Positions 13,492-64,000 of a stretch of 64,000 nucleotides of DNA are shown in pieces. This DNA is from an uncultured bacterium. Its GTDB lineage: Bacteria > Krumholzibacteriota > Krumholzibacteriia > LZORAL124-64-63. Below the pieces are notes generated by a model, which saw only the letters and a list, made by a program, of their open reading frames with translations, did no database searches and was not told the origin of the DNA. The stretch covers positions 352,001-416,000 of the forward strand of contig CAVSZB010000005.1 of assembly GCA_963732385.1 (NCBI GenBank), given 5' to 3'. The position numbers were made by a program, and so were the translations under genes. Position 1 is the stretch's first letter. The number at the start of each line of letters is the position of its first letter.

Positions 13492-15345
13492 TCATCCTGG
13501 CATGAAGAGAGCGGACAGGGCGGTTGATTGTCCAATCCCATCAATGCGGATGTCTCTCAAAAGGAAACTCAATTCTCTTTCGTCCGCGTTGATGCCGACG
13601 TCGCGCGGTATCACGGACTTGTCGGTGCTGATGATGATGGAAGCGGAATCGGATGGGGGAAGCAGAAAACTGAAAGTGAATTCCCCGCCGGGACAGTCCG
13701 TGGCGTCGACCATCCTGGATGCGACCACCGCGCCATTGGGGCGCTCCACGGTTACTTTCAGGCTGCCGCCGAAAGGCCCGTTGAGAAAGACCGCCGGGAC
13801 ATGGCCATGGAGGGACAGCTCCCTCGCCGCGCGATACCTGGCCAGGACTGTCGCCCGCTTCCCGAGCCAGTGGCTGCCATCGGGCTGCCTTTCATAGCAG
13901 CCAGCCAGGAACGCCGGGGCGGCGTCATTGGCCACGAAATCCAGTACCAGGTCATCGCCCAGTTCGGCCGCATCGCGTCCGCGTATCCTCGGGACCAGGG
14001 ACTGCGCGTCGGCACAGACCTTTTCGATGTCGGCGCATACGAAATTCCCACCCACTCCCGGCCTGTCGAGCAAAAGTATCGAGCATTTCGTCATCCATTC
14101 CTCGATGAGCTCGAGGAATTCGGCCCTGGGGATCGCCTGGCACAGGTAGCATCCCTGCGCGAAACTCTTCCAGTCCATGTCCGGGCTGACCAGCCCATGG
14201 CTCTGCGCGAAATCCCATATCTTCGTCCCCGGGAAGGGGCGCAGCTCGCCCCAGCCGGGTTTCTGGATCTTGCCATCCCGGAGGTTCCGATAGACCGCCC
14301 GCAGCGTAAGCAGAAGGTCTTCCCTGGTCTCGATCGGGGCTCCCAGAATGATACCTGGCCCCACGGAAATTCCGTATTTGTGCAGAAGATCCAGCGCCCG
14401 CTGGTTGATCTCCGCCGTACAGCCCGACTTGTTGTAGTATTCCAGGATCTTGTCGCTGAAGGATTCCAGCCCCATACCGACCTGGGTGACATTCAGCCGG
14501 ACCAGCAATCGGCAGACTTCGTCGGTGACGAGGTTGGCGCGGACCTGACAATCGAAGGCGCATCGACCGAGAATTCCCCGGGCCTCGAGCCTGGACGTCA
14601 GGTCGGAGAGCTTCTTCCTGTCGGCGATCAGGAGGTCATCGTAGATCACGATATTCCTGACCCCCTTCCGGGTCACCCAGTAGTCGATCTGCGCGGCAAA
14701 CAGGTCCATGGAGAGCGAACGGTAATTGCGAGCGAACCTGGCCGACGAACAGAAGCTGCATTTGTATGGGCACCCTCGCGCGGAAACAAGGCACATCGCA
14801 TCGGCCGGGTTGTAATACGGCAGCTCCTCGATCACGGGCTGGGGCAGGGCGTCGAGGTTCGCGATCGGCGCCCGCTCCCGGGTCCTGATCAGCTTCCCGT
14901 CGAGCCAGAACGCCAGACCTGCGATGGCCTGGAGCTTCACGGGGTCCAGGGCCCTGTGCGGCAGGTACGACCGCAGGAGTTCGACGAACGTGATTTCGCC
15001 TTCGCCAATCACTGCCGCATCGAAGCACTCGCGCAGGGACTCCGGCAGCAGCGAGATGTGGATGCCTCCGATCACCACCGGGATCCCCAACTCCCGCTTG
15101 ATTCTCTGCGCATGTTCGATCGCTATACTGTAATGATCGCTGGCGGCACTGATCCCGATGATGTCCGGTCGCTCCCTGATGAGATCATCGAGGCATTCCC
15201 GGTATATGACATCCGCATTCGGGATCTCATTATTGACGCTGGCGCCGACATAACCCAGACCCAGCGGAGCGAAGGTATTGAAACATCCCTGGGGCCGGGT
15301 GGCCAGGATCAGGCCGACCTTCAGGCGCGCGGAAACGTCAGTCAT
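13492..15345 (-). CDS. Cobalamin-binding radical SAM protein with C-terminal beta-sandwich-like module
   Basis: PLGLGYV, GGIHISLLP, GEGE, SARGCPYKCSFC, GLESFS, PFPGT. Confidence 0.9.
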   Translation of the reverse strand: MTDVSARLKVGLILATRPQGCFNTFAPLGLGYVGASVNNEIPNADVIYRECLDDLIRERPDIIGISAASDHYSIAIEHAQRIKRELGIPVVIGGIHISLLPESLRECFDAAVIGEGEITFVELLRSYLPHRALDPVKLQAIAGLAFWLDGKLIRTRERAPIANLDALPQPVIEELPYYNPADAMCLVSARGCPYKCSFCSSARFARNYRSLSMDLFAAQIDYWVTRKGVRNIVIYDDLLIADRKKLSDLTSRLEARGILGRCAFDCQVRANLVTDEVCRLLVRLNVTQVGMGLESFSDKILEYYNKSGCTAEINQRALDLLHKYGISVGPGIILGAPIETREDLLLTLRAVYRNLRDGKIQKPGWGELRPFPGTKIWDFAQSHGLVSPDMDWKSFAQGCYLCQAIPRAEFLELIEEWMTKCSILLLDRPGVGGNFVCADIEKVCADAQSLVPRIRGRDAAELGDDLVLDFVANDAAPAFLAGCYERQPDGSHWLGKRATVLARYRAARELSLHGHVPAVFLNGPFGGSLKVTVERPNGAVVASRMVDATDCPGGEFTFSFLLPPSDSASIIISTDKSVIPRDVGINADERELSFLLRDIRIDGIGQSTALSALFMPG

Positions 15346-17392
15346 GCCGCCCCCCCGCCTGGAGAACCGGAATATTGATTGTCCCGTTATCAGACACCCT
15401 GTTCTCTTCCTCCATATCCTGCGAGAACCGCACGTCGCGCAGCATGATCGACAGGTCCCGATCGTCCGGGCTCCGCCCATCTTCCGAAGGGCGGAAAGTC
15501 GCGCTGCAGCTGAGCGTGACGACATGGGCCTCTTCATGGGCCGGCAACGGCACGATGACCCTGAATTCCCCGGCATTCTCGGTGAACGTGCAGCTCGCGA
15601 TCGGCCTGGCGTTGTGCCATATCTCGCAACGGAACGACTGGGTGCGATAGATTTTGAACTGGGGGTGGCACGCCAGGGTGAAGGCCATCTTCCCGGCCGG
15701 CATGCCGGGCAGATGGCGCACCGTGAAGGCTGCGTTGCGGGCCATCCAGCGCGCGCCGGAAATGTTTTCAACCGCGTAGAACCCGTCGCCGAAGCAGACG
15801 ATGGGGTCGTCCGCCAGCATGGAGAGCACCGTCCTGAGACCCGCCTGCTCTCCTGCCCGGTGGTAGTGGAACGCGAGCAGGTGCAATCCCGTCTTCAGGG
15901 TGTCACGGTACCTGAGCAGATCGAGCGTCGCGCGCATGAACCCGGGGAGATCGCCCTGCTCCAGGCATCGCAGCGCCAGATCCTTGCGATCCCCGGCTTC
16001 CTGGCCCGTGAAGGGGGCCGCGGGCGTTTGGGTCAGTGAGGCCAGCGTCGTCGCAACCGCCGTGGCGGCGTCCCACGCGAGCCCCCACACCGAGAACAAT
16101 CCCGCATTGTCGGGGCGCAGCAGGGCCGCGACCTGCTCATGCTCGTTCTTGAGCTCCTGGAAGCGCGTCTCGGAGAGAGGAGAGAAGTAGAAGTCCCTGG
16201 ACGCGGCGAAATCATCCCAGCCCATGTCTTCGGAAACGACGCCCTTCTGCACGCCGAGGTCCCAGATGGGAGTTCCCGGGTAGGGCCTCAGATTGCCGCG
16301 CGCCCAGCGCTTGATCTTGCCCTGCGCATAGTTGCTTTCCAGGGCGGAGAACGTGGCCTTGTAGTCCTCCTCCTCCTCGCCCGGCGATCCGTAGATGATG
16401 CTGAGATCGACTTCCAGACCGTGCTTGTGCAGGGTGTCGATGGCCCTTTGATTCTGCTCGGGGGTGGTGTTGCCGGCCTTCAGATATTTCAGGACCCGGG
16501 GAGAGAACGACTCGGCCCCGAACCCGACCTGCCTGCAGTTGAGCTTGTTGAGGAGCTCGCAGAGATCGTCGTCGACCAGGTTGGCGCGAACCGATCCGGA
16601 GAAGACGATCGCGCCCAGCAGCCCCTGCATCTCCAGGCGCGAGACGATCCCGCGCAGCCGTTCACGCGGCACGATGAAAAGGTCGTCGAAGAAGTGGATC
16701 TCCCGGATGCCGAACTCCCGATGGATATGTGCGATCTCCCGGACCACGTAGTCCGCGGAGAATTGCCGCAGTCCGGGCCAGAAACGGGAGCTGGCGCAGA
16801 AGGTGCAGTGATAGGGGCATCCGCGGGAGGTGAAGAGGTGCGCGCGGTCAGGCTTGTTGCCGGTCCACAGGGCGCCCCGATCGGGCAGCGGGAGCGAGTC
16901 GAGCGGCTGGATCAGCGGGCGCGGGGCGGTCATTTCCGGGACGCCGCCGCGGCGGTACATGATGCCGCGGATCAGGGCCAGGTCCTCGGCGACGAACCGT
17001 TTGTCCCTGTTCGCGAAGGCCGTCACCAGCTCGCACAGGGTCTCCTCTCCCTCCCCCAGAACCGCCAGATCCATGTCCCGGTTGAAACTCCCGGGCATCA
17101 GGGAGATATGGATCCCCCCGATGATGACAGGCAGGCCGGACCGGGCCTTGATGTCCCGCGCGCAGCGCTGGGCCAGGTGGAACCGCTCCGTGGTGGCGCC
17201 GATTCCGATGATATCGACCCCATCGTCGAGCAGCTCGTCGGTGCTCGCCCCGATAATGGTTTCGCAGAATGGCGCGTGACGTCGCAGGTAGGAAAGGAAG
17301 TAGCCGGCGGCCAGCGGAACGAGTTCGGCCTGCCGGGCCACCGGATCGGCTCCGTCGGGGAACAAAAGGCCCAGCCGGACAGGACCGATCAT
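15338..17392 (-). CDS. Cobalamin-binding radical SAM protein with C-terminal beta-sandwich-like module
   Basis: GGIHISLMP, GEGEET, TSRGCPYHCTFC, DDLF, GAESFS, PYPGTP; paralogue of the neighbouring gene. Confidence 0.9.
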   Translation of the reverse strand: MIGPVRLGLLFPDGADPVARQAELVPLAAGYFLSYLRRHAPFCETIIGASTDELLDDGVDIIGIGATTERFHLAQRCARDIKARSGLPVIIGGIHISLMPGSFNRDMDLAVLGEGEETLCELVTAFANRDKRFVAEDLALIRGIMYRRGGVPEMTAPRPLIQPLDSLPLPDRGALWTGNKPDRAHLFTSRGCPYHCTFCASSRFWPGLRQFSADYVVREIAHIHREFGIREIHFFDDLFIVPRERLRGIVSRLEMQGLLGAIVFSGSVRANLVDDDLCELLNKLNCRQVGFGAESFSPRVLKYLKAGNTTPEQNQRAIDTLHKHGLEVDLSIIYGSPGEEEEDYKATFSALESNYAQGKIKRWARGNLRPYPGTPIWDLGVQKGVVSEDMGWDDFAASRDFYFSPLSETRFQELKNEHEQVAALLRPDNAGLFSVWGLAWDAATAVATTLASLTQTPAAPFTGQEAGDRKDLALRCLEQGDLPGFMRATLDLLRYRDTLKTGLHLLAFHYHRAGEQAGLRTVLSMLADDPIVCFGDGFYAVENISGARWMARNAAFTVRHLPGMPAGKMAFTLACHPQFKIYRTQSFRCEIWHNARPIASCTFTENAGEFRVIVPLPAHEEAHVVTLSCSATFRPSEDGRSPDDRDLSIMLRDVRFSQDMEEENRVSDNGTINIPVLQAGGRHD

Positions 17393-17399
17393 GTCCGCC

Positions 17400-18713
17400 T
17401 CATCTCGGAACCGCCTCGAGGCGGCGCGAATCCTTGAGCAGGCCCGCCGCGACCGCGAGTTCAACGGCCATGATCCGGTCCGCCAGCGGAAAGGTCGGTG
17501 TCTCGAAGTAGATGACGGTGTTGCCACCGTCGATCCTCCGGTCGAAATGGTGCGGCTGGTCAAGCATCAGATTGTTCCTGAGCACATGTTCACGCAGGGC
17601 CGTGCCGGGAAACGGTATGGCGCAGCTCATGTTGACATCCTCGAATTTGTGGCGCAGCGCGAAATCGATCGTCTTCTTCACCGTTTCCAGCGTGTCTCCG
17701 ATGTTCCCGATGATGAACTGGCCCACGATCCCGATGCCGTTGTCGCGCAGGTGCCGGATGCCTCTTTCGATGTCCTCGATGGTTTCGCCCTTGCACATGA
17801 GCCTGAGCGATTCGTTGTCCGCGGACTCGATTCCGATGCTCGTCCCGACCACTCCGGCGTCGCGCATGGCCCTGGCGGTCTCGGCGTCGAGGCGATCGGC
17901 GCGCATGCCCCGCGGGAAGTACCGGAACGGGTAGCTCTTGAAGATCTTCATCAACGCCAGGGTCCGCTCCCTGCGCATGTTGAACATGTCGTCGTTGATC
18001 GACACGATCAGGCTGCGGTCCTCGTGCTCATATATCCAGCGGAGTTCCTGGTCGATTCTCTCGAGTGGCTTGAACCGGATCGTCCTTCCGAAAATCTCAT
18101 GGCCTATGCAGAAATGGCAGTTGTTCGGGCAGCCCCGCGAGGTGGACAGGGAGTGCGCGTTCCACGTCGCGTCGATATATATGTCGCGCAGGGGGATGGG
18201 CAGTTCGGACGCGGACAGGAGCTTGCGGGACGGGTTCCGGACTATTGCGGTGCCTTGCCGGAAAGTGATGCCCTCGATGCCCGCCCAGGGGGCGCCGGCA
18301 AGGATCTCGGCGCAGGATTCCTCGCCCTCGCCGTGGACGCAGATGTCCATGTCCGGGATCTCCGCCAGCAGTTCCTCCGTACCGAGCGTCGCGTGGGGTC
18401 CCCCGGCCATGAAGACGATGTCGGCGCGCCGGGCCTTGATCCTGGATATGAGCCCCCGGGCGTACTGGGTCGCCGATTCGTCGCTGGTCACGAAGAAGCC
18501 CACATAGCGATAGCCGTACTCCTCGATCGCGCGCACGATGGATTCGTCATCGCACTGCGATGTCAGCACCGCGTGGCTTGCCAGACCGCGCTCCCTGAGC
18601 CGCGCCGCCACCGCGGATATCCCCTGGTGGACGATGCGCTCGTTCGACATCCCCCGGTCGGGGTTGATGAACAGGATCGCGGGATCTTTCGGCAGGTCAT
18701 ATCCCTGTCTCAT
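17400..18713 (-). CDS. Cobalamin-binding radical SAM protein
   Basis: GGPHAT, GEGEE, TSRGCPNNCHFC, GIESAD, PFPGT. Confidence 0.9.
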   Translation of the reverse strand: MRQGYDLPKDPAILFINPDRGMSNERIVHQGISAVAARLRERGLASHAVLTSQCDDESIVRAIEEYGYRYVGFFVTSDESATQYARGLISRIKARRADIVFMAGGPHATLGTEELLAEIPDMDICVHGEGEESCAEILAGAPWAGIEGITFRQGTAIVRNPSRKLLSASELPIPLRDIYIDATWNAHSLSTSRGCPNNCHFCIGHEIFGRTIRFKPLERIDQELRWIYEHEDRSLIVSINDDMFNMRRERTLALMKIFKSYPFRYFPRGMRADRLDAETARAMRDAGVVGTSIGIESADNESLRLMCKGETIEDIERGIRHLRDNGIGIVGQFIIGNIGDTLETVKKTIDFALRHKFEDVNMSCAIPFPGTALREHVLRNNLMLDQPHHFDRRIDGGNTVIYFETPTFPLADRIMAVELAVAAGLLKDSRRLEAVPR

Positions 18714-47231: not shown

Positions 47232-48482
47232 TCACGTCTTCTCGGTCCAGAGCCGACTCAACGGCACGGCGAAGAGGCCCTCCCCGAACGGAATGGAGGC
47301 CTCTCCATCGTACAGCACGACACCGGCAGCGAAGCGGCTGCCGACGGCTTCCCGCAATTTCTTCAAGCCCCGGAAATCCTTCGCGACGACGGTTCCGGAC
47401 AGCTTGACTTCGATCCCCACGATCTGTCGTCCGGCGCGTTCGAGGACGGCATCGACTTCGGCGCCCTCTTTGGTCCGAAAATGATGCAACTGGATCCGCT
47501 CCGCGCTCCAGCTTGCCTGTCGCCGGAGTTCCTGGACCACGTAGGTCTCGAGCAGGTGGCCGAGCAGGACCCGATCCTCGCGGAGCGCCTCGACGGAATG
47601 GTTCAGGGCGGCGCAGGCAACTCCTGTATCCCCGATGTGGAGCTTCGGCGCCTTGATCAGGCGGCTGAGCCGGTTGCTGTGCCACGAGGGCAACCGCTGG
47701 ATCAGGAAGACCTGCTCGAGCAGCGTCACGTAGTCACCTATCGTCGGCCTGCTCAAGCGGAACGGACCGGCGAGTTCGGCCAGATTGAACAACTGAGCGG
47801 TCTGGGCCGCGGCCAGCGCCACGATCTGAGGCAGGACCTCGATCTCCCGGATGCGGGCGAGGTCCTTGATGTCCCGCTGGGTGATGGTGTCGATATATTC
47901 GCTGTACCAATCGGTCCGCCTGCGCTCGTTCGTACGGGACAGCGCGTCCGGGTAGCCTCCGGCAGCGACGATCTCCGCAATCCCGTCACCGAGGCGTTCG
48001 GCCTGGTGCATCAAGCCCGCACCGGAGAACAGATCCGCGATGAAACCTGATCGCCGGCCCAGGATCTCGCAGCGGGACAACGGATGCAGCCTGATGATTT
48101 CCATCCGTCCGGCAAGGGAGTCGGACACCTTGGGGATCATCAGGATGTTTGCCGAGCCGGTCAGGATGAAGCGCCCGGGCCTGCGGTCGCGATCGACCGC
48201 GAGCTTGATGGTCGAGAAGAGCTCCGGAACCCGCTGGACTTCGTCCAGGATGATCCGCTCGGGGAGCCCGGCGACGAATCCGGCCGGGTCATCCTGCGCA
48301 GCCGAACGGACGCCAACATCGTCGAAACTGTAGTAGGCGAATCCCTTCTCCTGTCCCACGTGGCGGGCCAGCGTCGTCTTGCCGCTCTGGCGCGGGCCGT
48401 GGATGAGGACGACCGGAGTATCGGTCAGGGCTTCCTCGACCCGCTCCTGGATGAATCTCGGGATGTAGGCCGATTGGATCAT
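47232..48482 (-). CDS. AAA_14 ATPase with DUF4143 (paralogue of 40027-41271)
   Basis: GPRQSGKTT, LDEVQR, GGYP, KAPK, EVD..IEVK. Confidence 0.9.
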   Translation of the reverse strand: MIQSAYIPRFIQERVEEALTDTPVVLIHGPRQSGKTTLARHVGQEKGFAYYSFDDVGVRSAAQDDPAGFVAGLPERIILDEVQRVPELFSTIKLAVDRDRRPGRFILTGSANILMIPKVSDSLAGRMEIIRLHPLSRCEILGRRSGFIADLFSGAGLMHQAERLGDGIAEIVAAGGYPDALSRTNERRRTDWYSEYIDTITQRDIKDLARIREIEVLPQIVALAAAQTAQLFNLAELAGPFRLSRPTIGDYVTLLEQVFLIQRLPSWHSNRLSRLIKAPKLHIGDTGVACAALNHSVEALREDRVLLGHLLETYVVQELRRQASWSAERIQLHHFRTKEGAEVDAVLERAGRQIVGIEVKLSGTVVAKDFRGLKKLREAVGSRFAAGVVLYDGEASIPFGEGLFAVPLSRLWTEKT

Positions 48483-48618
48483 GGTCCTTGCTCCGGATTG
48501 GAATGTGTCCAAATGAAAGGTTGTTGGCTGGCCAATTGTAGGTTTTTGTAGCGCCAATTGCAACTATACGTATTGGCTGATCGCAATTTGCTCTGGCGGT
48601 CGCCCTGTCGATCGGGAC

Positions 48619-49928
48619 TGTCCCTACTAGAAACTCCGTCCGCCTTGTCCCCGCGGCGGTTACCGCCCCTTGCCGGTGCTTCATCGTTCGCCCATCCTGC
48701 CGATAGCCCCCGGATGATTCCCCTCATCCTGGCCACCCTGCGCGACCTGATCCGCCCGCGGCACGATCTGATCCTCGAGAACCTCGCCCTGCGCCAGCAG
48801 CTCCTCGTGCTCGAGCGCTCCGGCGCCCGCCCCCGGCTCCGCGCCGCCGACAAGGCGTTCTGGGTCGCGCTCTCCCGTTGCTGGCGCCACTGGCGCCGAC
48901 CCCTGCGCCTCGTCAAGCCGTCCACCGTGATCGCCTGGCACCGGAAGGGCTGGCGCCTCTACTGGCGCTGGAAATCCCGAGCAGGCAAGGGCGGGCGCCC
49001 CGGCATCCCGATCACGACCATCGACCTGATCCGCAGGATGTCCCACGACAATCCGCTCTGGGGCGCCCCCCGCATCCACGGCGAACTGCTGATGCTCGGC
49101 ATCAACGTGAGCGAAGCGACCGTGGCGAAGTACATGATCAAACGCGGGAAGCCGCCGTCACAGAATTGGCAGACCTTCATCCGCAACCATCTGCCCGACA
49201 TCGTCGCCATCGACTTCCTCACCGTCCCGACCGTGACCTTCGGCACCTTCTACGTGCTGATCTTCCTCTCCCTCGACCGCCGGAGGATCATCCACTTCAA
49301 CGTGACCGACGCCCCCTCCGCACTCTGGACAAGCCTGCAACTGATCCAGGCCTTCCCCTTCGACACCGCCCCCCGCTTCATCGTCCGTGACCGCGACAGC
49401 ATCTACGGCGCCGTCGTGAAGGCAACGATCAAGCAGATCGGCAGCACGCAGAAGGTGATCTCCCGTCGCTCCCCCTGGCAGAACGGCTACTGCGAGCGCA
49501 TGGTCGGCACCATCAAACGCGAATGCCTCGATCACATGATCGTCCTCGACGAGTTCCACCTGCGCCGCGTGCTGAAGGATTACTTCAAGTACTACCACGA
49601 GGTCCGGACGCACCTTGGCCTGGACAAGGACGCGCCGATCCCCCGCGAGATCGAGCCCCCGGAACGCGGCCCCGTCCGATCAGAGCCGATGGTGCGCGGC
49701 CTGCACCATCGCTACTTCCGCAAAGCGGCCTGACGGAGAAGCAATGGGCGCCAGCCACCGCGGGGGATGGGTCTGCCCGGCAGCCGGGAGGGCGGCGCAC
49801 GAAGGGCGCGCGCCGCCTGACAAGTCGGCGTATCGAAGCTCTTGACCGGGCCTGTCATGCGATCGAGAATCACGATCCGGCGGTGCCGGCTCGCAGATCG
49901 AGGTGCGTGGAGGTTTTTGGTAGGGACA
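48619..49928 (+). mobile_element. IS481-like insertion sequence with TGT...ACA termini
   Basis: Left end TGTCCCTACTAGAAAC; right end reverse complement TGTCCCTACCAAAAAC; single rve transposase; no clear target duplication. Confidence 0.75.
48714..49733 (+). CDS. Integrase-core (rve/DDE) transposase
   Basis: WGAPRIHGEL, AIDF, RDRD..YG, SPWQNGYCER..GTIKRECLD, RTHLGL. Confidence 0.93.
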   Translation: MIPLILATLRDLIRPRHDLILENLALRQQLLVLERSGARPRLRAADKAFWVALSRCWRHWRRPLRLVKPSTVIAWHRKGWRLYWRWKSRAGKGGRPGIPITTIDLIRRMSHDNPLWGAPRIHGELLMLGINVSEATVAKYMIKRGKPPSQNWQTFIRNHLPDIVAIDFLTVPTVTFGTFYVLIFLSLDRRRIIHFNVTDAPSALWTSLQLIQAFPFDTAPRFIVRDRDSIYGAVVKATIKQIGSTQKVISRRSPWQNGYCERMVGTIKRECLDHMIVLDEFHLRRVLKDYFKYYHEVRTHLGLDKDAPIPREIEPPERGPVRSEPMVRGLHHRYFRKAA

Positions 49929-52540: not shown

Positions 52541-52615
52541 TGGCTCCCCGGGCTGGACTCGAACCAGCAACCCTTCGGTTAACAGCCGAATGCTCTACCA
52601 TTGAGCTACCGAGGA
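52541..52615 (-). tRNA. tRNA-Asn (GTT)
   Basis: TCCTCGGTAGCTCAATGGTAGAGCATTCGGCTGTTAACCGAAGGGTTGCTGGTTCGAGTCCAGCCCGGGGAGCCA; cloverleaf with encoded CCA. Confidence 0.98.
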
Positions 52616-52839: not shown

Positions 52840-55443
<2,604 letters not shown>

Positions 55444-55468
55444 GATCAACCTCCCTTCGGCGACGTCG

Positions 55469-55891
55469 TTAGCGGTGCAGGAACCAGGTTTCGATGACGA
55501 ACCACAGGGACGCCAGCCCGCTGAACCGGGCACGTTGAGGCGCGTACGCACAGACTGTCGATTCGGGATCGTCGGCGGGCGAAGCAAGCGATGGTGCGGT
55601 CGACTCGGTCAACATTACGGCCGGCTGGGGATCGGCGATGACGAGGACCGACATCAGGGTCGGTGAATCCCGGTGGTCGCCATCATCCGGGTCGCCGGAG
55701 CTTGCGCCAGGGGCGATGCAAATATTGAGTCTTGCCTCTGCGGGCGAAGCGGCGAAAAACGGCAGCAGGGCGGCCAGGAACAGAGAGGCACGTATCAACG
55801 CGGCCGGCGTCGCGGGCAGGAAGGCAAGCAGAGAATCGCCGGCGCGGCGCTCCCCGCGAAAGGGGCGGTGACAGGCATGGGTGTCCGGCAT
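55469..55891 (-). CDS. Small exported/membrane-anchored 'GDPD' protein
   Basis: Signal-peptide-like region ending AEA, GDPDDGD acidic patch, Ser/Pro linker, aromatic C-terminal helix [12 protein letters not shown]. Confidence 0.55.
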
Positions 55892-56043
55892 GATGACCTC
55901 GCTCTTGCGGGAGGACGTGACGTCGCACACATCCCTGAGTCCGCCGGAAATGGGCGTACCATTACCCGGCGAGGAATGGGATGTGAAGAGTCCTCACGGG
56001 AGGAGGGGGCCTGGCCGGAGCCCGACGTGAGAGGTAATAATTG

Positions 56044-56095: not shown

Positions 56096-57571
56096 CTACA
56101 GTTCCAGTTCGAGCTGCACCTGCCAGGGACGATCGGCCTGGCCGTTCATTACCGGCCTGGCGAAGTAGAGACGCAGGTTGCCCTGGCCCCCCGCACCGAG
56201 AAGGCGACCGAAGCCGAACCCGGCGTCGGCGCGCCAGCCCGTCACTCCCTCCGGCGGAGCAGGCAGGCCGGCGGCTTCGGCGCGACCGAAGTCGGCGAAA
56301 ATGATCGGCTGCAGGCGCAGGTCGCCCAGCAGCGGCACGCGCAGCGCGTGGAGCGGATCGCAGCCGGCGCGCGCGTCGATGGCGGCCAGCAGACCGCGAT
56401 CTCCGGCCAGCTCGCGGGCCGGATAGCCGCGCAGACTGTTCGAGCCGCCCAGGAAGGTCTTCCACTGCAGCGGGGCGACGCGGTCCACGCCACTCCAGGC
56501 CACGCGCGCCACGAACTCGTTGCCGTGGCGGTCGAGCCAGCTGCCGCGCGCGCGGGCGGCCAGCCGCAGGAAATCGCGTCGGTCCGGTTCGTCGCCGGCC
56601 GGGAAATCGAGGGCGGCGCCGGCGGCACTGTGCCACTCGGCGCGAGTATCGACCCCGAGGCGTGAACCGTTCCAGGCGAGGCCGGCGGTCAGGGCGCGCG
56701 AGTCGAGCGGCGCGGCGGCCCAGTTGAGCGGCACGCGGCCGGTCTCGCCGGACAGATTCCAGGTCGTGGCCACATCCAGCGCACGGTGCCGCTCCCGCAG
56801 CGCCCCCACCCGCGCCTCGAGCTGTCGCACCGGACACCACGTCACCGCCGCCTCCCCCCAGCGCCGGGCGTGGTACATGGCTGGATCCGCGCCCGACAGG
56901 ATGGCGTCGAGCGTGCGAACCAGACTGGCGTTCCCGGCGAACGACGTGACGCCGTCGCCGCCCGCCACCGAGAGCGCCCAGCTGGTCCAGGGGCGGCGGG
57001 GCGGCCGGTCGGGACGCTCCACCGGACGCGCTGCCGCCAGCGGCCACGCCACGGCCGCGTTCCACACCACCCGCCGGCGCGCGATCCCGTAGCCGGCGCC
57101 CAGCGTGATGACGGCCCCCTGCCGTCCGAGCCGCCGCAACACCGCCCCCGACGCCGGCCGCCACCCCTCGCAGCGGTTGAAACCGGTGCCGGCGAGCGGG
57201 CGCAGCGCCAGTTTCCAGCGGCGTCCGCCGAGCAGCGCGGCCAGCTCCCGGTCGCCTACCGAGGAGAGCGAGTCGAGGGTGGCCTCGTCGAGGCCGGACT
57301 CGAGCAGGTCGGGGGTGAGCGGCTCGTACCAGGCGTCGTCGAGCCGGCGCCACCAGGCGTTCAGCGAATCGATGGCCGCCTCGTCGAGCGCGCGACGCAA
57401 AGAGTCGGCCGCGGCGGAATCCGCCATCGCCGACGCGCTCAGGAGGGGAACCCGCTCCGGCAATGGCGCGTTGGGCGCCTCCTGGTCGCCATTTTGGGCG
57501 CGGGCGAACCCGCCGACCGGCAGGCCGGCGAGCGCCAGGACCAGTGCGCAGACGATACCGGGCCGCCTCAT
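56096..57571 (-). CDS. Outer-membrane beta-barrel protein (Omp85/DUF5686-like)
   Basis: Signal peptide, FNR.EG, LGG.NSLRGY...EL.GD, DAGFGFG, C-terminal amphipathic strand. Confidence 0.65.
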   Translation of the reverse strand: MRRPGIVCALVLALAGLPVGGFARAQNGDQEAPNAPLPERVPLLSASAMADSAAADSLRRALDEAAIDSLNAWWRRLDDAWYEPLTPDLLESGLDEATLDSLSSVGDRELAALLGGRRWKLALRPLAGTGFNRCEGWRPASGAVLRRLGRQGAVITLGAGYGIARRRVVWNAAVAWPLAAARPVERPDRPPRRPWTSWALSVAGGDGVTSFAGNASLVRTLDAILSGADPAMYHARRWGEAAVTWCPVRQLEARVGALRERHRALDVATTWNLSGETGRVPLNWAAAPLDSRALTAGLAWNGSRLGVDTRAEWHSAAGAALDFPAGDEPDRRDFLRLAARARGSWLDRHGNEFVARVAWSGVDRVAPLQWKTFLGGSNSLRGYPARELAGDRGLLAAIDARAGCDPLHALRVPLLGDLRLQPIIFADFGRAEAAGLPAPPEGVTGWRADAGFGFGRLLGAGGQGNLRLYFARPVMNGQADRPWQVQLELEL

Positions 57572-58536
57572 CGCGCTCCTCCCCCGTCCGCGGTCGCGTC
57601 GTCGCCGTACGCCACCCCGCCGATGACGTGGTCGCGAGTGCGCACGAACAGCTCGACCTCGTCCGGCAGCCCCGGCCAGCCGCCGCGCAATACGATCTTC
57701 GCCATCACGTCCGCCACGACCCAGAAGTCCCCCTTCGCCACCCGGCGAATCTTGAACCACGGGATCGCCTTCACGAACAGCGGCAGCGGCGCCCCCTCGG
57801 TCATGCCGGCCTCGAGACGCCGGATGACGAAATCGCTGTAGTCGATCCAGACCGTGCCCGACGGCAGCCCCTTGAAGCGGCTCCTGGGCGTGAAGCGGAT
57901 CGTGTAGACGAGATGAGCGCCGAAAAGATCGCGCGACAGAACCGTGTAGTTGTACTGGTCGGCCCCCTCGAGCGTGAAGGGGATGGCCGATGTGGCGTCG
58001 GAGATCTGCTCCCAGTCGCTCTCCACGTCGTCGTCGGTCTTCTCCTTCTCGAGACGGCCGCCGCGATATTTGCGCTCGACCTGCCGCACCCGCACCCGCT
58101 GGAAGGCGCCGTCGCGCCGCACCGCGAGGCGCTCGACCTGCTCGTATTCGGTGCGGTCTTCGTCGCGACCGCCGTGCTCGCGCGCGACCACCCGCGTGAC
58201 CTGGGTCCAGGCGTGATCGCCCATGCGCGCCTCGTCGGCGGCCATCCGCTCGCCGATGCGGCGCACCACCTCGGCCACGCCGATCCGCGGCGCGTCGACC
58301 AGGACCGTGTCGAGCGTGCCGGCGGCGAAGGCGAACGTGTCCTCCTCGGCCAGGAATATGCCGTAACCCTCTTTCAGCGCCTCGTCAGGATCGATGAACC
58401 AGGGGTCGACCTCGGTGCCGCTGCCGCCCGCAGCGGCCGTGGTGTCGGCCGGGACGGGGTCGGCAGCCGCGGCGCCCGCGGCGAGCAGGAGCGCGAGAAC
58501 CGGTGCGGCGAGACACCGGGACCGGAGCGAAAGCAT
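57568..58536 (-). CDS. Exported protein (sigma-E-regulon/LolA-like or DUF5686 N-terminal-like fold)
   Basis: Signal peptide, Y.I.F.P....G.VWID..DF.I.R motif; stop overlaps the next start. Confidence 0.55.
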   Translation of the reverse strand: MLSLRSRCLAAPVLALLLAAGAAAADPVPADTTAAAGGSGTEVDPWFIDPDEALKEGYGIFLAEEDTFAFAAGTLDTVLVDAPRIGVAEVVRRIGERMAADEARMGDHAWTQVTRVVAREHGGRDEDRTEYEQVERLAVRRDGAFQRVRVRQVERKYRGGRLEKEKTDDDVESDWEQISDATSAIPFTLEGADQYNYTVLSRDLFGAHLVYTIRFTPRSRFKGLPSGTVWIDYSDFVIRRLEAGMTEGAPLPLFVKAIPWFKIRRVAKGDFWVVADVMAKIVLRGGWPGLPDEVELFVRTRDHVIGGVAYGDDATADGGGAR

Positions 58537-58537
58537 C

Positions 58538-59227
58538 CTACCTCCTGTCGCTGGAACGGAACACGGCGCACAGCAGCCGGGCGCTCTTACCCAAAACCGC
58601 GCGGACCGGTTCCCGCGCGGCGCGCGCCACGGCAAGGTCGGAGCCGGGAAGCGGCAGGGCGGCGGCCAGGAGCCAGAGCGGCGGCACGAGCGCCGGAGCC
58701 CACGCAGCGTAGTCCGCGCCAGGCGGCGTCGGCAACAGATTGCACACCGCCAGCGGCAGGGAAACGCCCAGCAGGCCGGCGATCCCGGCCGCGAGAGGCC
58801 CGGCCAGTGCCGCCGTCGCCGCCGCCCGGGGCGCCAGCGGCGGCCGGATCCGCGCCGCGGCCAGCAGCGGAAACCGGGTCACCAGCGCCAGGCGGGCGTG
58901 CGGGGCGAGGCGGGCCGCGACCGCCAGGTGAGCCGTCTCCTCCACCGACACGAGCAGCGCGCAGACCGGCACCGTGGCGGCCGCCCCCCACGGCACGACG
59001 CCGGCCAGCGCCGCGCAAGTCACCCCGCTCAGCGCCGGACCCCAGCTGCGCAACACGAGCCGCGCCACGTCGGGCCAGCCGCGGCGCGGCGTGAACAGCA
59101 CCCCGACCGGCCATACCCACTCCGTCTCGCGGCGCGCCGCTGTCCACCACGCCTGCACCCGCGCCCGCGTCACGCGCGCCGCCCGCGCCGCCCGCGCCGG
59201 CCGCGGGATCAGTACCAGTCGCGCCAC
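58538..59227 (-). CDS. M50/site-2-protease-like membrane protein with degenerate zinc motif
   Basis: EETAH in place of HExxH, AALAGP, NLLP and LPLPGSD motifs; overlaps the radical SAM 3' end; start uncertain. Confidence 0.5.
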   Translation of the reverse strand: MARLVLIPRPARAARAARVTRARVQAWWTAARRETEWVWPVGVLFTPRRGWPDVARLVLRSWGPALSGVTCAALAGVVPWGAAATVPVCALLVSVEETAHLAVAARLAPHARLALVTRFPLLAAARIRPPLAPRAAATAALAGPLAAGIAGLLGVSLPLAVCNLLPTPPGADYAAWAPALVPPLWLLAAALPLPGSDLAVARAAREPVRAVLGKSARLLCAVFRSSDRR

Positions 59228-60600
59228 AGACCGGCCGCGAGGCTGTGGTCCGCACCTCCGCCCGCGCCGCGGAACGGCAGCATGGCGCTCATCGCCTCGC
59301 CGGTCTCATCCGCCAGCCGCCGCACAGCGCCGAACTGCAGCGCGCGCAGACGCTCCGGGCCGAGGCGGGCGGTGGCGCAGACCGGGGTATGCATATTGTA
59401 GTGATCGAAGTCGTCGGTGAGACGCCGCAGCCCCAGTTCTTCGCCGCGGCGCCACAGGCGCGTGCCGGGAAACGGCACCAGCAGCGCGAAGCCGCAGCGC
59501 GCCAGATGGCGGGCCTGCAGGCCGGCCGCGAACTCCACGGTGTCGCCGATCGTCGCCTCGGTGTCCCACGGATGCCCGATGATGAAGCTGCAGACGGGCG
59601 ACAGGCCGGCCGCGGAGGCCCAGCCCACCGCCCGCTCCACCTGCCCGAGCGTGGTGTCCTTGCCCATGGCGTCGAGCAGCGTCTGGCTGCCGCTCTCCAC
59701 CCCGAACTGCACCGACACGCAGCCGAGGTCGGCCATGCGGCGCAGCAGCGGCAGCGAGACGGTGTCGGTGCGGGATTCGCAGACCCAGACGAGGCCCAGG
59801 CGCGCCTCTTCCATCAGGTCGAGCAGCCGCTCCAGCCGCGCGGGATCGGCGGTGAGCGTGTCATCGACGAAGAAGACCCCCTCCACGCCGGCGCCGCGCA
59901 GTTCCGCCAGCTCGGCCACCACGTTCTCGGCGGAGCGGACCCGCCGCCGTCCGCCCGACATCGCCGCCGCCGCGCAGAAGGCGCAACGGCCGGGGCAGCC
60001 GCGTCCCGTCAGCACGGAGGCCTGGTTGCCCGACACGACCGGCACGAACAGGTCGCGCGCGGGGAACGGCAGCGTGTCGAGATCGGCCACGAGCGGACGT
60101 GGCGCGGTGCGTCGGACCGTGCCGTCACCGCCCGCCGGCCCCGGCAGCGCCAGTCCCGCCACGCGCGAAAGGTCGCCGCCGCCGCACACCACCTGAGCCA
60201 GATCGACGATAGTGTCCTCCCCCTCGCGCACGGCCACCGCGTCGAACAGACCGTCGGCCAGCGCCACCTCGGGCAGGAAGGTCCAGTGCGGCCCCCCCGT
60301 GACCAGCAGCGATTCCGGCAGCGCGGCGCGCAACCGGCGCGCCAGCCGTGCGGCATTGCCGGCGCTCTCGGTGGCGCAGGAGAGGCCGATCAGCGGCGGT
60401 CGCTGCGCCGCGGTGAAACGGACCACCCAGTCCGACGGGCAGGGGGCCGCGTTCATGTCGATCAGCGCCGTGCGGAAACCGGCGCGGGCCAGCGCCGCGC
60501 CGAGGTAGGCGACGCCGAGCGGGGTGGCACGGTAGGAAACGCCGGCCAGGACGTTGGCGGGGTGGGGCGCGTTGACGGCGATCAGCACGACGTCGAGCAC
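59209..60600 (-). CDS. Cobalamin-binding radical SAM enzyme (class B methyltransferase-like)
   Basis: PLGVAYL, GGPHWT, REGE, GRGCPGRCAFC, DDTL, GVESGS, PFPGT; AGAAGGGGG RBS before GTG. Confidence 0.92.
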   Translation of the reverse strand: MLDVVLIAVNAPHPANVLAGVSYRATPLGVAYLGAALARAGFRTALIDMNAAPCPSDWVVRFTAAQRPPLIGLSCATESAGNAARLARRLRAALPESLLVTGGPHWTFLPEVALADGLFDAVAVREGEDTIVDLAQVVCGGGDLSRVAGLALPGPAGGDGTVRRTAPRPLVADLDTLPFPARDLFVPVVSGNQASVLTGRGCPGRCAFCAAAAMSGGRRRVRSAENVVAELAELRGAGVEGVFFVDDTLTADPARLERLLDLMEEARLGLVWVCESRTDTVSLPLLRRMADLGCVSVQFGVESGSQTLLDAMGKDTTLGQVERAVGWASAAGLSPVCSFIIGHPWDTEATIGDTVEFAAGLQARHLARCGFALLVPFPGTRLWRRGEELGLRRLTDDFDHYNMHTPVCATARLGPERLRALQFGAVRRLADETGEAMSAMLPFRGAGGGADHSLAAGLWRDWY

Positions 60601-60949
60601 GGAGACCCCCTTCTGACCTCAGAGTGACAACTCCGGTTTCGGGCGCCGGTCGACGCGTGCGCGCCGGTCTGCGCTCCACCCCGCCACGGGACCCCGCGAT
60701 CGGTCGGTCGCGGAGAGAGGCGGACCGGCGGTCGCCGGCCCCGATCGCGGTCTGCAAGCGCGGGGCCGCGCGCCGACGGAACGTGCGCGTGGGCCCGCCG
60801 GCGGCGCAGGGGATTATCGGCGAAGCCTGCGGGCGGATCAGCGTCGCGCGGCAGCGCCGGCGCGCCGTCATGCAGGTGGAGCAGGTGACGCGGTCGGGCG
60901 ACAACCGGCGGTGTCCGGGGCCGCGATCGGGGGCAGGGAGGGCGGCAGC

Positions 60950-62983
60950 CTAGCAGCCCACCGCCAGGGTTGGCGCGAGCAGGCGGTCGATGGTCCGCCA
61001 GAGGGTGGCGGGGTCGATCGGCTTGGCCACATACGCATCCATTCCGGCGGCGCGACAGCGCTCCTCGTCCCCCTTGAGAGCCTGAGCGGTGAGCGCCACG
61101 ATCGGCAGGTGTCCGCCGGTGGTCTTCTCCTGCTCGCGAATGGCGCGCGTGGCGTCGAAGCCGTCGAGCACCGGCATCTGGACGTCCATCAGCACAAGGT
61201 CCCACCGCTCGCGCGCGATCGCGGCCAGGGCCTCGCGGCCGTCGCCGGCAATTCCGACCGTGTAGCCCCGGCGCTGCAACAGCCGCTCGATGAACTTCCG
61301 GTTCACGTGATTGTCCTCGGCCATGAGGACGCGAGCGGACGCGCCACCAACGGCCGGGGCTGGACCGGCGATGGCCGCCGCGGTCGCGTCCGCCTCCGGC
61401 GCAATGGCGACGGACGGCACCGCGCAGGCGGACGTGAAGGTGAAAATGCTGCCGCGCCCCTCGACGCTCTCCACCTGCAGATCGCCCCCCATGAACCGGG
61501 CCAGCTGGCGCGCGATGCTCAGGCCGAGCCCCGTGCCGCCGGGGTGCCCGCCGGCGGCGCCCGTCACCTGCACGAACGGCTCGAAGATGCGCTCGAGCTG
61601 GGCGGCCGGAATGCCCGGTCCGGTGTCGGAAACGCGCAGACGCAGGTCGACGGTGTCGCCGCGGCGCCCGGCCAGGTCGACGCGGACCTCAACCCAGCCC
61701 GCCGCGGTGAACTTCATCGCGTTGCCCACCAGGTTCACCACCACCTGCCGCAGGCGCTTGGCGTCGGTCACCAGAAATCCGGGCACCTCGGCGTCCACGC
61801 CCCACCGCAGGCGCAGGCCCTTGTGTTCGGCCTGGGCCGCGAACGACCGCATCATTTGGTCGAGCTGCCGGCGCGGCTCCAGCGACGCGAGGTTCAACTC
61901 TTCCCGCCCCGCCTCGATCCGGGCGAGGTCGAGCAGATCGTTGATCAGTTCGAGCAGGTCGAGCGCCGACTGGCGCGCGGTTTCGAGACAGTCGCGCTGG
62001 TCGGCGGTCAGCTCGGTGTCGAGCACCAGGCCGGTCAGCCCGAGCAGGCCGTTGAGCGGTGTCCGCATCTCGTGACTCATGCCGGCCAGGAAGGTGCTCT
62101 TGGCGCGATTGGCCGCCTCCGCCGTATCGCGGGCCGCGCGCAGGGCCTGCTCGCTCTCGCGCAGGGCGCTCTCGGCACGCACCTGTTCGGTGATGTCGCG
62201 GAAACTGCAGAGACGCCCCGCGGTCGCCTGGTCGCGGACCATGGGCCGGGAGAACCGCTCGAAGACGCGTCCATCCAAGCAGTGCAGCAGGGTGGTTTCG
62301 GTTGCGATCGATCCGTTGAGATCCTGTACGCAGCGCACGAACGCGGCAGGGTCGACCAGCTGCCCGGCCACATGGGCAAACAGCTGCTCGTCGTCGCGCT
62401 GGTCCAACAGCGGCTTCGGGATGCGCCACAGCGTGGCGAAGCGGGCATTCGTGAAGACGACGCGACCCGCGTTGTCGACCACGAGGATGCCGTCGGCGGT
62501 GGAATCGAGGATGGCGGTCAGGGTCTGGCGGCTCTCGGCCAGCTCACGTTCCACCGCGAACCGCTGACTGACGTCCTGCATCACGCTGACCCAGGCCGGA
62601 CGACCCCCGTACACGATCGGCGTCGAGCAGACTTCAACGGCGAATTCCCGCCCGCCCCGCGTGCGGTGCCGGTAGAGGTTCGGGTGTCCGTAGCGGCCGA
62701 TCCGCCCGGCAGCGACCCGTTCACGCGCGAGCTTCTCCTCGTCGGAGGCGAACAACAGCCAGAGCGGCTGCCCGATCAGTTCCTCGCGGGTCCACCCGTA
62801 GATGTCCGCCACCAGATAGTTGCAGTCGAGCAGCAGCCAGGTCTCGCGGTCGATCACGATGACCGGCAACCCGAGGTCGTTGAATACGCCGGGAGACGGG
62901 CAGACGTTCACCGGTTCTCCCGACCTGCGGAGTTCCGCAACGTCGCAGGGATCGGATTGGGAAGGACTCCGGCCTGTCGTCAT
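60950..62983 (-). CDS. Hybrid sensor histidine kinase (PAS-PAS-HisKA-HATPase-REC), cytoplasmic
   Basis: SHEMRTPLN, NLVGNAMKFT, DTGPGI, GTGLGL, MDVQMP, KP. Confidence 0.95.
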   Translation of the reverse strand: MTTGRSPSQSDPCDVAELRRSGEPVNVCPSPGVFNDLGLPVIVIDRETWLLLDCNYLVADIYGWTREELIGQPLWLLFASDEEKLARERVAAGRIGRYGHPNLYRHRTRGGREFAVEVCSTPIVYGGRPAWVSVMQDVSQRFAVERELAESRQTLTAILDSTADGILVVDNAGRVVFTNARFATLWRIPKPLLDQRDDEQLFAHVAGQLVDPAAFVRCVQDLNGSIATETTLLHCLDGRVFERFSRPMVRDQATAGRLCSFRDITEQVRAESALRESEQALRAARDTAEAANRAKSTFLAGMSHEMRTPLNGLLGLTGLVLDTELTADQRDCLETARQSALDLLELINDLLDLARIEAGREELNLASLEPRRQLDQMMRSFAAQAEHKGLRLRWGVDAEVPGFLVTDAKRLRQVVVNLVGNAMKFTAAGWVEVRVDLAGRRGDTVDLRLRVSDTGPGIPAAQLERIFEPFVQVTGAAGGHPGGTGLGLSIARQLARFMGGDLQVESVEGRGSIFTFTSACAVPSVAIAPEADATAAAIAGPAPAVGGASARVLMAEDNHVNRKFIERLLQRRGYTVGIAGDGREALAAIARERWDLVLMDVQMPVLDGFDATRAIREQEKTTGGHLPIVALTAQALKGDEERCRAAGMDAYVAKPIDPATLWRTIDRLLAPTLAVGC

Positions 62984-63539: not shown

Positions 63540-63677
63540 CTACCTCTGCAGCGTCGTTCCGACGGCGACCAGGACCGTCGCCACGATCGCAGCCAGCTTC
63601 ACCGGCAGATCAAGCGCGGCTTCACGGGCTTGCAGCCCGACGAGCACCGCCTGCGGCTTCTCAAAAGTCATGGTCAT
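63540..63677 (-). CDS. Putative RiPP precursor peptide, 45 aa
   Basis: MTMTFEKPQAVLVGLQAREAALDLPVKLAAIVATVLVAVGTTLQR*; GAAAGGGGGTG RBS; TGATG overlap with the upstream gene; FxxP leader motif; directly upstream of PqqD. Confidence 0.75.
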   Translation of the reverse strand: MTMTFEKPQAVLVGLQAREAALDLPVKLAAIVATVLVAVGTTLQR

Positions 63678-64000
63678 CACCCCCTTTCCGGGAGGCGGAG
63701 TTCTCCCCGCCCTCCGTGCCCGGCCGACGCGGCGAGACGCGTGTAGACGCGCGCCAGGGCGTCGCCCGTGGTGGACGCAGCCGCGTCCGCGGCGCAGTCA
63801 CGCCAGGCGGCACGGCAGGCGCGGCGCTGCTGCCGGCGCTCGCCGGCAAGCCCGGCCAGCCGTTTCGCCAATTCCCGTGGTTCGGATCCGCCGGACCGGA
63901 TCACCGGCGTGCCGCGCCGCCAGAGCCAGGTCAGCAGCGGCGGCGGCCACGCCTCGTGGCCCAGCACGACCACCGCGTTCGCCTGTCCGAATGCGCGTCC
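63677..64000 (-). CDS. Glycosyltransferase (GT4-like) C-terminal part, runs off the window
   Basis: Frame open to the edge: ..ANAVVVLGHE..RGTPVIRS..ELA..L..L....LARVY, resembling a degenerate GT4 C-terminus. Confidence 0.4.
   Translation of the reverse strand, partial: GRAFGQANAVVVLGHEAWPPPLLTWLWRRGTPVIRSGGSEPRELAKRLAGLAGERRQQRRACRAAWRDCAADAAASTTGDALARVYTRLAASAGHGGRGELRLPERG

Follow-up and report, generated by a model that had tools for sequence, protein, structure and literature searches.

A conserved short gene beside a PqqD-type RRE gene as the candidate precursor of a radical SAM-modified peptide

A short open reading frame beside a pqqD gene in an uncultured bacterium raises the question of whether it encodes the precursor of an RRE-dependent RiPP and, if so, which neighbouring genes would act on its product. 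A sequence-only reading of this DNA had proposed a 45-aa precursor with an FEKP leader and a Val/Ala-rich core, which would be bound by the PqqD protein and undergo radical C-methylation and possibly Thr glycosylation. We analysed the gene in the window, i.e. the whole 64-kb stretch of genome G000 under study, and in related genomes and metagenome loci. It lies in a minus-strand island in which a GT-B/GT4-like gene, the peptide gene, a PqqD/RRE gene, a hybrid kinase gene, a B12-binding radical SAM (rSAM) gene and the gene of a 229-aa membrane protein follow one another. The island continues on the same strand with DUF5686-like and Omp85-like genes, the gene of a small exported-looking protein, a gene for a TPR sigma-54 activator and tRNA-Asn. 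Its features are:

About 64950, minus strand: sigma-54-type site, 44 nt before the start of the GT-like gene
63677..64000, running to 64906 beyond the window, minus strand: gene of a GT4-like protein of 409 aa with a predicted GT-B fold; the 3' part lies in the window
63677..63687, minus strand: ribosome-binding site AAAGGGGGTGA, overlapping the stop codon of the upstream gene
63540..63671, minus strand: putative precursor peptide; the second ATG gives the likely length of 43 aa, a start at 63677 would give 45 aa
63068..63442, minus strand: stand-alone PqqD/RRE protein, 124 aa (PF05402, E 7.6e-13), with a W-x-P-L-D-P tail
60950..62983, minus strand: PAS-PAS hybrid histidine kinase, a variable insert
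60753..60767, minus strand: sigma-54-type -24/-12 site, GGC-N7-TTGCA, upstream of the rSAM gene
59209..60600, minus strand: B12-binding radical SAM enzyme, 463 aa (PF02310 and PF04055), CxxxCxxC with C202/C206/C209
58538..59227, minus strand: membrane protein of 229 aa with a predicted site-2-protease (M50) fold, start uncertain
56096..58536, minus strand: two exported-looking proteins 3' of the protease-like gene, DUF5686/LolA-like (57568-58536) and Omp85-like (56096 to about 57570), each with a weak Pfam match below cut-off
55469..55930, minus strand: small protein whose N-terminus resembles a signal peptide by eye; it carries the motif GDPDDG(D/E)H, and its gene immediately precedes that of the activator
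52840..55587, minus strand: TPR-repeat sigma-54 enhancer-binding activator (PF00158, E 2.4e-65, and TPR_12)
52541..52615, minus strand: tRNA-Asn, bounding the island

The peptide gene and its conservation

Read from its first ATG, the precursor frame comprises 45 codons (63677-63540, minus strand), and the plus strand at 63540-63677 holds only an unrelated frame. Frame and sequence are as the sequence-only reading had quoted them, but translation probably starts at the second ATG (63671), yielding 43 aa that begin MTFEKP, because a GGGGG run lies 2 nt from the first ATG and 8 nt from the second, and because the first ATG is replaced by ATC in G008. F5 and P8 of the earlier numbering therefore become F3 and P6. 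The strong ribosome-binding site described earlier holds up, in that GGGGGTGAT is retained in 6/6 upstream regions compared, although its spacing points to the second start codon. Translational coupling fared less well: the TGA of the upstream gene shares bases with the first ATG in the window, but in G016 and G008 the upstream gene stops approximately 40-55 nt earlier, without a TGATG overlap. The pqqD gene, noted before as next door, lies about 100 bp downstream. The peptide gene had been called unannotated, but gene callers already predict the protein, which is found in four clusters of the protein collection.

Database and signal searches added little. The peptide matched no Pfam or NCBIfam family, and the ESM Atlas queried with it gave a best value of 0.77 and no lead. 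The hairpin between the peptide and pqqD genes gave no better folding than shuffled sequences at 6/6 loci (z -1.2 to +0.5), and searches for a sigma-70 promoter and an intrinsic terminator found none. In a single study, three metatranscriptome runs have 6-7% of words in common; X1 contigs over the peptide gene reached a summed depth of 477 in that bin and at most 110 in the other bins of X1, and the X2 and X3 contigs gave no coverage of the gene. As such contigs can neither rank genes nor show transcription, they were not counted as evidence.

Full-length peptide homologues were detected by profile search (E<=2.7e-19) in 5/208 genomes of the phylum, G000, G001, G002, G008 and G016; partial matches in eight further genomes (E 0.017-0.043) were treated as chance. 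A metagenome scan with the PqqD alignment yielded six loci, and the peptide lies just upstream in the four that have a strong PqqD match; the metagenome loci L046 and L047 are fragments with no peptide match. The peptide is thus conserved beside homologous PqqD genes both within the phylum and in metagenomes, as the precursor idea had anticipated. Compared with eight homologues, pN/pS ranged from 0.08 to 0.54, with the G008 peptide (0.49) still constrained, and codon position 3 holds 14 of the 22 variable sites among seven close sequences. The peptide ORF is a real gene under purifying selection.

All ten aligned peptides begin MxFExP and end TLQ(K/R/Q). Down to 44% identity, M1, F3, E4, P6, A19, L22, P23, T32, V33, L34, V37, G38, T40, L41 and Q42 are invariant, which gives a layout of an M1-x-F3-E4-x-P6 leader motif, a variable acidic/polar linker, L22-P23 and a hydrophobic C-terminal helix (best 19-residue Kyte-Doolittle mean 2.08-2.12 in the four sequences computed). 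The leader motif stands out against the genome background: 36 of 1449 short SD-led ORFs in G000 carry [YFW]xxP within their first nine residues, and only this peptide carries [YF]E[KR]P. In the putative core, whose boundary with the leader is a guess, we counted five Val, one Ile and three Thr and no Cys, Ser or aromatic residue, in agreement with the earlier count; the lack of Ser and aromatics holds for the core of the window peptide but not for homologous cores, which carry Ser, Phe and Trp.

The C-terminal helix is hydrophobic enough for a plain transmembrane segment, and this speaks against the RiPP reading. Together with gene loss in G008 and the degenerate motifs of the GT-like and protease-like neighbours, it would suit a small membrane protein of the ordinary kind, or what is left of a cluster in decay, with the adjacency to pqqD being incidental. 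We give this explanation a very slim chance, given that FExP is invariant at a soluble N-terminus across 44% identity, that co-occurrence with the RRE is strict, and that the frames are intact and under purifying selection.

The RRE and its link to a B12 radical SAM enzyme

One set of 5/208 genomes of the phylum carries all three of GT-like gene, peptide and RRE, with the peptide always located between the GT-B/GT4-like gene and the PqqD/RRE gene; outside these five, one genome has a weak generic PqqD match only. The RRE family is discrete (18 clusters, separated by an E-value gap from 2.5e-31 to 1.5e-7), and its W-x-P-L-D-P tail is family-specific. One PqqD with 70% identity bears the name Candidatus Krumholzibacteriia. 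The other two PqqD genes of G000 lie 76 kb and about 410 kb away, with no similar peptide beside them in a filtered ORF listing.

The motif [Y/W]xxPx[L/V/I/F/A] is reported as a tested binding site for discrete RREs (PMC13381572), and residue-level tolerance is described for the aromatic position of the leader motif (PMC12710340). FEKPQA fits this motif with F in place of Y. A RiPP precursor with an (F/Y)xxP leader for RRE binding, as first proposed from the sequence, is well supported by context, and the binding itself is predicted: F3, E4 and P6 are invariant in 10/10 rows, the RRE co-occurs in 5/208 genomes, and similar precursors are found elsewhere. Co-folding, run for the pair of peptide and RRE alone, gave 0.20 against a mark of 0.32 and was counted neither way. 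We regard it as probable that this peptide serves as precursor to an RRE-dependent RiPP, with a predicted leader-RRE interaction and predicted modification by the B12 enzyme.

The relation between RRE and rSAM enzyme emerged from proteins in which both are fused. Among the best 150 rSAM relatives, 13 have an N-terminal extension of 80-200 aa; all 13 match the PqqD-family profile of the window (best E 2.5e-23, weakest 0.011), 12/13 match Pfam PqqD (28 of the best 150 scanned), and several fused RRE-rSAM proteins keep the tail motif of the PqqD family. Since these fused relatives match the RRE profile, the RRE and rSAM of the window represent, as two separate genes, what is elsewhere a single fused RRE-rSAM protein. 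A quick tree was built from 55 rows, assessed by SH-aLRT only and leaving out L031, L036 and three weak rSAM matches; in it the window rSAM falls inside a 33-row clade (SH-aLRT 99). This clade takes in 13/13 fused rows, 9/11 rows with a neighbouring RRE and nine context-free rows, and none of the 17 rows in which no RRE was seen within 3-18 kb of context. The window enzyme itself scores below the cut-off of all 25 NCBIfam models among the matches listed.

At 4/8 other loci that combine an RRE with a related enzyme, an SD-led short ORF with (Y/F)xxP near its start lies beside the enzymes; these precursors were selected for adjoining the enzymes, out of a listing in which many rows are due to chance. 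They carry YMNP on a Clostridium estertheticum plasmid, FVDP in G084, FTAP in G389 and, as two copies, YERP in G508, and three of the four have Val/Ala/Gly-rich C-termini. The two G508 enzymes (locus L103) adjoin the leaders closest to that of the window peptide, yet are not members of the 33-row clade.

These loci are clusters in their own right. On the Clostridium estertheticum plasmid (NZ_CP086250.1, L069:9368-16931), a Cys-poor, Val/Ala/Gly-rich YMNP precursor is accompanied by an RRE-like protein, two B12 radical SAM enzymes, an RRE-radical SAM protein, an S8 peptidase and an ABC transporter; the accessible text of a bacteriocin-mining paper on the species group of this organism does not clearly cover the cluster. 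Further RRE and B12 rSAM clusters with (Y/F)xxP precursors are located at L037:2762-8085 (minus strand; G084:C52), at L098:2349-15404 (minus strand; G389), where two RRE/enzyme pairs, an aminotransferase, a CAAX protease and an ABC transporter are present, and at L103:8389-13577 (plus strand; G508), with two similar YERP precursors. Five rSAM relatives (P0009, P0012, P0035, P0048 and P0054) are 2000-2300 aa long with several radical SAM matches, P0009 and P0012 having five radical SAM and four B12-binding stretches plus SPASM, and P0035 four and four; judged by their domains, they are possible poly-enzyme peptide maturases.

The window also holds three tandem B12 radical SAM genes (about 14100-18500, minus strand), which were rejected as partners of the peptide and lie outside the RRE clade. 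They adjoin glycosyltransferase-like and methyltransferase-like genes and probably serve glycan modification. Three tandem B12 rSAM matches are likewise present in G002.

For the reaction of the window enzyme, radical C-methylation is plausible from its sequence. A B12-rSAM pair is reported to methylate Val, Ile, Thr and Pro of a hydrophobic RiPP (PMC10849626). Radical methylases have been tied to a hydrophobic residue at cobalamin's lower-axial position (PMC12931638), and by sequence alignment alone the lower-axial Trp76 of TokK corresponds to Glu78 of the window enzyme, with Glu or Asp in this column in 18/22 clade members. The best PDB sequence match of the enzyme is AprD4, with OxsB ranked above TokK, and PbsB, another RiPP B12-rSAM, is described as cross-linking instead of methylating (PMC12257519). 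The polar Thr-Glu loop at the Trp76 column, the AprD4 and OxsB matches and the PbsB precedent would thus suit an RRE-bound precursor on which the B12 rSAM performs other radical chemistry, i.e. cross-linking, rearrangement or oxidation. The Glu78 argument against methylation is weakened, however, because MpcB (from pSCL4, beside the clavusporin core), a shown methylase, has the likewise polar Gln at the same column; moreover, the invariant core consists of Val, Thr and Leu and offers no aromatic or Cys partner for a cross-link. We therefore hold such other chemistry to be distinctly unlikely.

Neighbouring enzymes, island limits and regulation

The GT-like protein has no Pfam or NCBIfam match. 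In the ESM Atlas it hit GT4 clusters at 0.95-0.96, its best 10/10 matches belonging to one clan, and Foldseek retrieved MshA (E 2.2e-9) with a low-confidence model (pLDDT 59); on these model-based comparisons the protein can be assigned a GT-B fold. The motif E-x7-E is the nucleotide-sugar motif of GT4 enzymes. Its first Glu is invariant among the GT-like rows, and the second is found in 1/5, that of G008. With such a neighbour, Thr residues of the peptide may be glycosylated.

The rSAM and protease-like genes are present in four of the five peptide genomes, beyond a variable kinase insert of 2-4 kb that stands between RRE and rSAM. The exception is G008 (98% complete), which keeps the GT-like gene, the peptide and the RRE and lacks an rSAM orthologue (best E 3e-19); a search of this genome for a protease orthologue also found none. 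The GT4-like protein could instead be the class-defining enzyme and carry out RRE-guided peptide glycosylation, with tailoring by rSAM and protease being optional. The genes for the GT-like protein, the peptide and the RRE make up one promoter unit and occur together in 5/5 genomes, as compared with 4/5 for rSAM and protease; the G008 peptide is constrained (pN/pS 0.49), no row but that of the G008 GT-like protein has both Glu of the motif, and T32 and T40 are invariant. Nevertheless, the RRE corresponds to an N-terminal domain split off from fused RRE-rSAM proteins, a non-exhaustive scan of the four other RRE/rSAM loci brought no GT gene to notice, and G008 has lost the activator too, so that its locus may be decaying. 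Glycosylation as the defining step appears unlikely to us.

The idea of a leader and RRE in the sequence-only reading is well supported, but neither the site-2-protease-fold gene nor the sigma-54 sites nor the wider rSAM clade had been noticed there. Pfam returned nothing for the protease-like protein. Its AF2 model (pLDDT 84.5) contains a re-entrant beta hairpin (E93-99/E103-109), and the top three of 48,161 chains by structure were SpoIVFB (Z 9.7; rmsd 3.6 over 142 aligned residues), mjS2P (Z 7.9) and RseP (Z 7.0); Foldseek also placed SpoIVFB first, with an E of just 0.32. Support for an S2P fold from this model is moderate, because the Z values lie below the 13 advised for helical proteins and because of the Foldseek E of 0.32. 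The protein has EExxH in place of HExxH, AGP and an invariant C-terminal Asp (LPGSD-type); EE(T/Y)AH occurs in 12/12 rows, none of which shows HExxH. By motif position, without superposition, the catalytic Glu, the second His and the distal Asp appear to be retained relative to SpoIVFB H43/E44/H47/D137, and the EExxH protein may bind metal via Glu/His/Asp or be inactive. M50 proteases are reported to process epipeptides and pearlins (PMC10885120) and daptides (bioRxiv 10.1101/2023.03.08.531785).

The DUF5686/LolA-like and Omp85-like genes have Pfam E values of 7e-4 and 0.022, below cut-off, and their order is repeated in L044. Any part they play in the pathway is putative. In G008 and G016 the locus ends at the same tRNA as the tRNA-Asn of the window. 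We saw no dedicated exporter among the genes of the island.

Past the tRNA by a few kb, inspection by eye showed an integrase/transposase-like ORF (48558-49733, plus strand) and an ATPase-like ORF (47232-48563, minus strand). In G002 (L010, G002:C27, about 9800 and contig end) there are a frameshift in the kinase, a break of the rSAM near residue 390 and an abrupt change to AT-rich sequence within the protease gene, and beyond about 426000 the contig G000:C5 carries genes of different character; the G002 breaks and the far end of G000:C5 may be assembly artefacts.

The pattern GGC-N7-TTGCW, which we take to be the sigma-54 -24/-12 consensus, is present upstream of the rSAM gene in 5/5 orthologous regions and upstream of the GT-like gene at 4/5 loci, with a relaxed GGT version in G008 (by eye), against a genome background of 0.03 per kb. 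These sites are a strong lead rather than a test, because the pattern was picked after two loci had been seen and the loci are related. The TPR activator is the probable regulator of both sigma-54-type promoters, as far as can be inferred; orthologues of its TPR region are 84% identical in G001 and 58% in G016, and none exceeds 31% in G008 and G002. The small exported-looking protein has no Pfam match, and only its GDPDDG(D/E)H motif, found also in G016 and L044 and twice in G008, is clearly conserved (L009 near 3126, minus strand; L044 near 8908, plus strand; L059 near 14393 and 14480, plus strand). Since in both G000 and G016 its gene immediately precedes that of the activator, it could be a peptide signal for the latter.

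At the kinase position, G008 and G016 have other hybrid kinases on the opposite strand (by eye from sequence). Three unrelated hybrid kinases thus directly follow pqqD (window 60950-62983; L009:8950-12699; L059:9503-12196). A membrane-anchored signalling peptide, for which RRE binding and intramembrane cleavage feed the hybrid kinase or the TPR activator, would account for the transmembrane-like helix, the site-2-protease fold, a hybrid kinase after the RRE gene in all three lineages, different each time, and the island's TPR activator and small exported-looking protein. However, these kinases are not orthologues and vary in strand, which fits repeated insertion; the window kinase has cytoplasmic PAS domains only, and a signalling role would be compatible with peptide modification as well. 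A signalling role of this kind is, in our estimate, highly unlikely.

A proposed pathway and its relation to known systems

What the analysis shows is selection on the peptide gene, a strict link between it and the genes of RRE and GT-like protein, the folds and domains found in its neighbours, and the split RRE/rSAM pair. For the favoured reading, an RRE-dependent RiPP, we propose that the TPR sigma-54 activator would turn on two units, GT-peptide-RRE and rSAM-protease. The stand-alone RRE would bind the F3-E-K-P6 leader and present the peptide to the B12 rSAM, which, with SAM and methylcobalamin, would C-methylate unactivated carbons as MpcBC does on clavusporin. The likeliest site would be the C-beta of Val, Ile or Thr in the conserved TVL(V/I)(A/T)VG(T/Q)TLQ block, and by analogy we give C-methylation a slightly better than even chance. 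The GT4-like protein would add a sugar to one of the invariant Thr residues, T32 or T40, a step that we put forward tentatively and rate below even. The hydrophobic helix would then insert in the membrane, where the site-2-protease-fold protein would cut off the leader near L22-P23; we give this an even chance. The product would be an amphiphilic peptide of approximately 20 residues with membrane or surface activity.

Several observations count against parts of this scheme. G008 keeps GT-like gene, peptide and RRE without rSAM, protease and activator, which argues against the rSAM being essential. The protease-like protein lacks the first His of HExxH, and the GT-like protein has a degenerate motif and is silent in Pfam. 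The kinase insert between RRE and rSAM, the lack of a visible exporter, the Glu78 column and the position of the L103 enzymes in the tree weigh on the same side.

The locus might also be the founding example of a new RiPP class, namely a sigma-54-regulated, membrane-released helical peptide that undergoes C-alkylation or some new radical reaction of the B12 type, receives a sugar on Thr from a GT4-fold enzyme and is cleaved by a site-2-protease variant with EExxH, and that belongs with a wider clade, in several phyla, of RRE-linked B12 rSAMs serving (Y/F)xxP aliphatic precursors. Taken jointly, these elements make a rather unlikely combination. In any case, an uncharacterised RRE-linked B12 rSAM clade, for which no NCBIfam model reaches its cut-off, is here paired with a short defined substrate, and its chemistry should therefore be directly readable by co-expression in E. 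coli. The locus would also test GT4-fold glycosylation of a RiPP and the activity of an EExxH site-2 protease, and a lineage represented here by metagenome assemblies only thereby gains a candidate natural-product pathway.

The features tested set the peptide apart from lasso peptides, daptides, clavusporins and epipeptides. The gene combination is apparently undescribed: no description of the cluster was found in the titles and abstracts listed from literature outside subscription journals.

Lasso and linear polyphosphorylated peptides share an (Y/W/F)xxP leader beside a discrete RRE (PMC13381572). By Pfam and NCBIfam, however, the 17 ORFs at approximately 52.8-72.5 kb include no macrolactam synthase, B2 peptidase, SpI peptidase or HprK kinase, and the lasso_PqqD_Strm model scores 15.4 against a cut-off of 70.

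Proteusins have a long nitrile-hydratase-like leader. The window peptide has no such leader and the island no epimerase, and by this description the two are set apart, although valine C-beta methylation by PoyC in polytheonamide is the chemistry proposed here (PMC8326336).

Clavusporins (mpc, Streptomyces clavuligerus) resemble the window system in a precursor of about 40 residues with a hydrophobic core that has many Val, Ile, Thr and Pro residues, and in leader-dependent modification by a B12 radical SAM enzyme (PMC10849626). They are reported to use DUF5825 (MpcC), an S9 peptidase and an acidic follower, whereas the window has a PqqD-type RRE, an S2P fold and a GT-like gene, and its peptide has no acidic follower. 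The window rSAM is 25% identical to MpcB over 334 aa and scores 63.7 on TIGR03975 (cut-off 281.85), which places it outside the MpcB family; a search for DUF5825 gave no match in G000 and none in the control genomes either.

Daptides combine an RRE with an intramembrane site-2 protease and a branched-aliphatic precursor, and a helical membrane-active product would be expected in both cases; daptide RREs are described as fused to the site-2 protease and as serving aliphatic-rich cores (10.1101/2023.03.08.531785). In the window, RRE and protease are separate genes, the peptide has neither the ELExMEAP leader nor the C-terminal Thr reported for daptides (10/10 rows), and the island is without the dehydrogenase, aminotransferase and methyltransferase set.

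In epipeptide clusters (epeXEPAB), too, a short precursor goes with a single radical SAM enzyme and with an M50 protease in the membrane, described as the putative agent of cleavage and export (PMC10885120, PMC8326336). Their enzyme is described as an epimerase with two Fe-S clusters, whereas that of the window is B12-binding (PF02310 and PF04055) with no SPASM match and is accompanied by a discrete RRE and a GT-like gene, with no ABC transporter seen. By analogy, the proposed pathway may be likened to clavusporin chemistry combined with a release of the daptide or epipeptide type.
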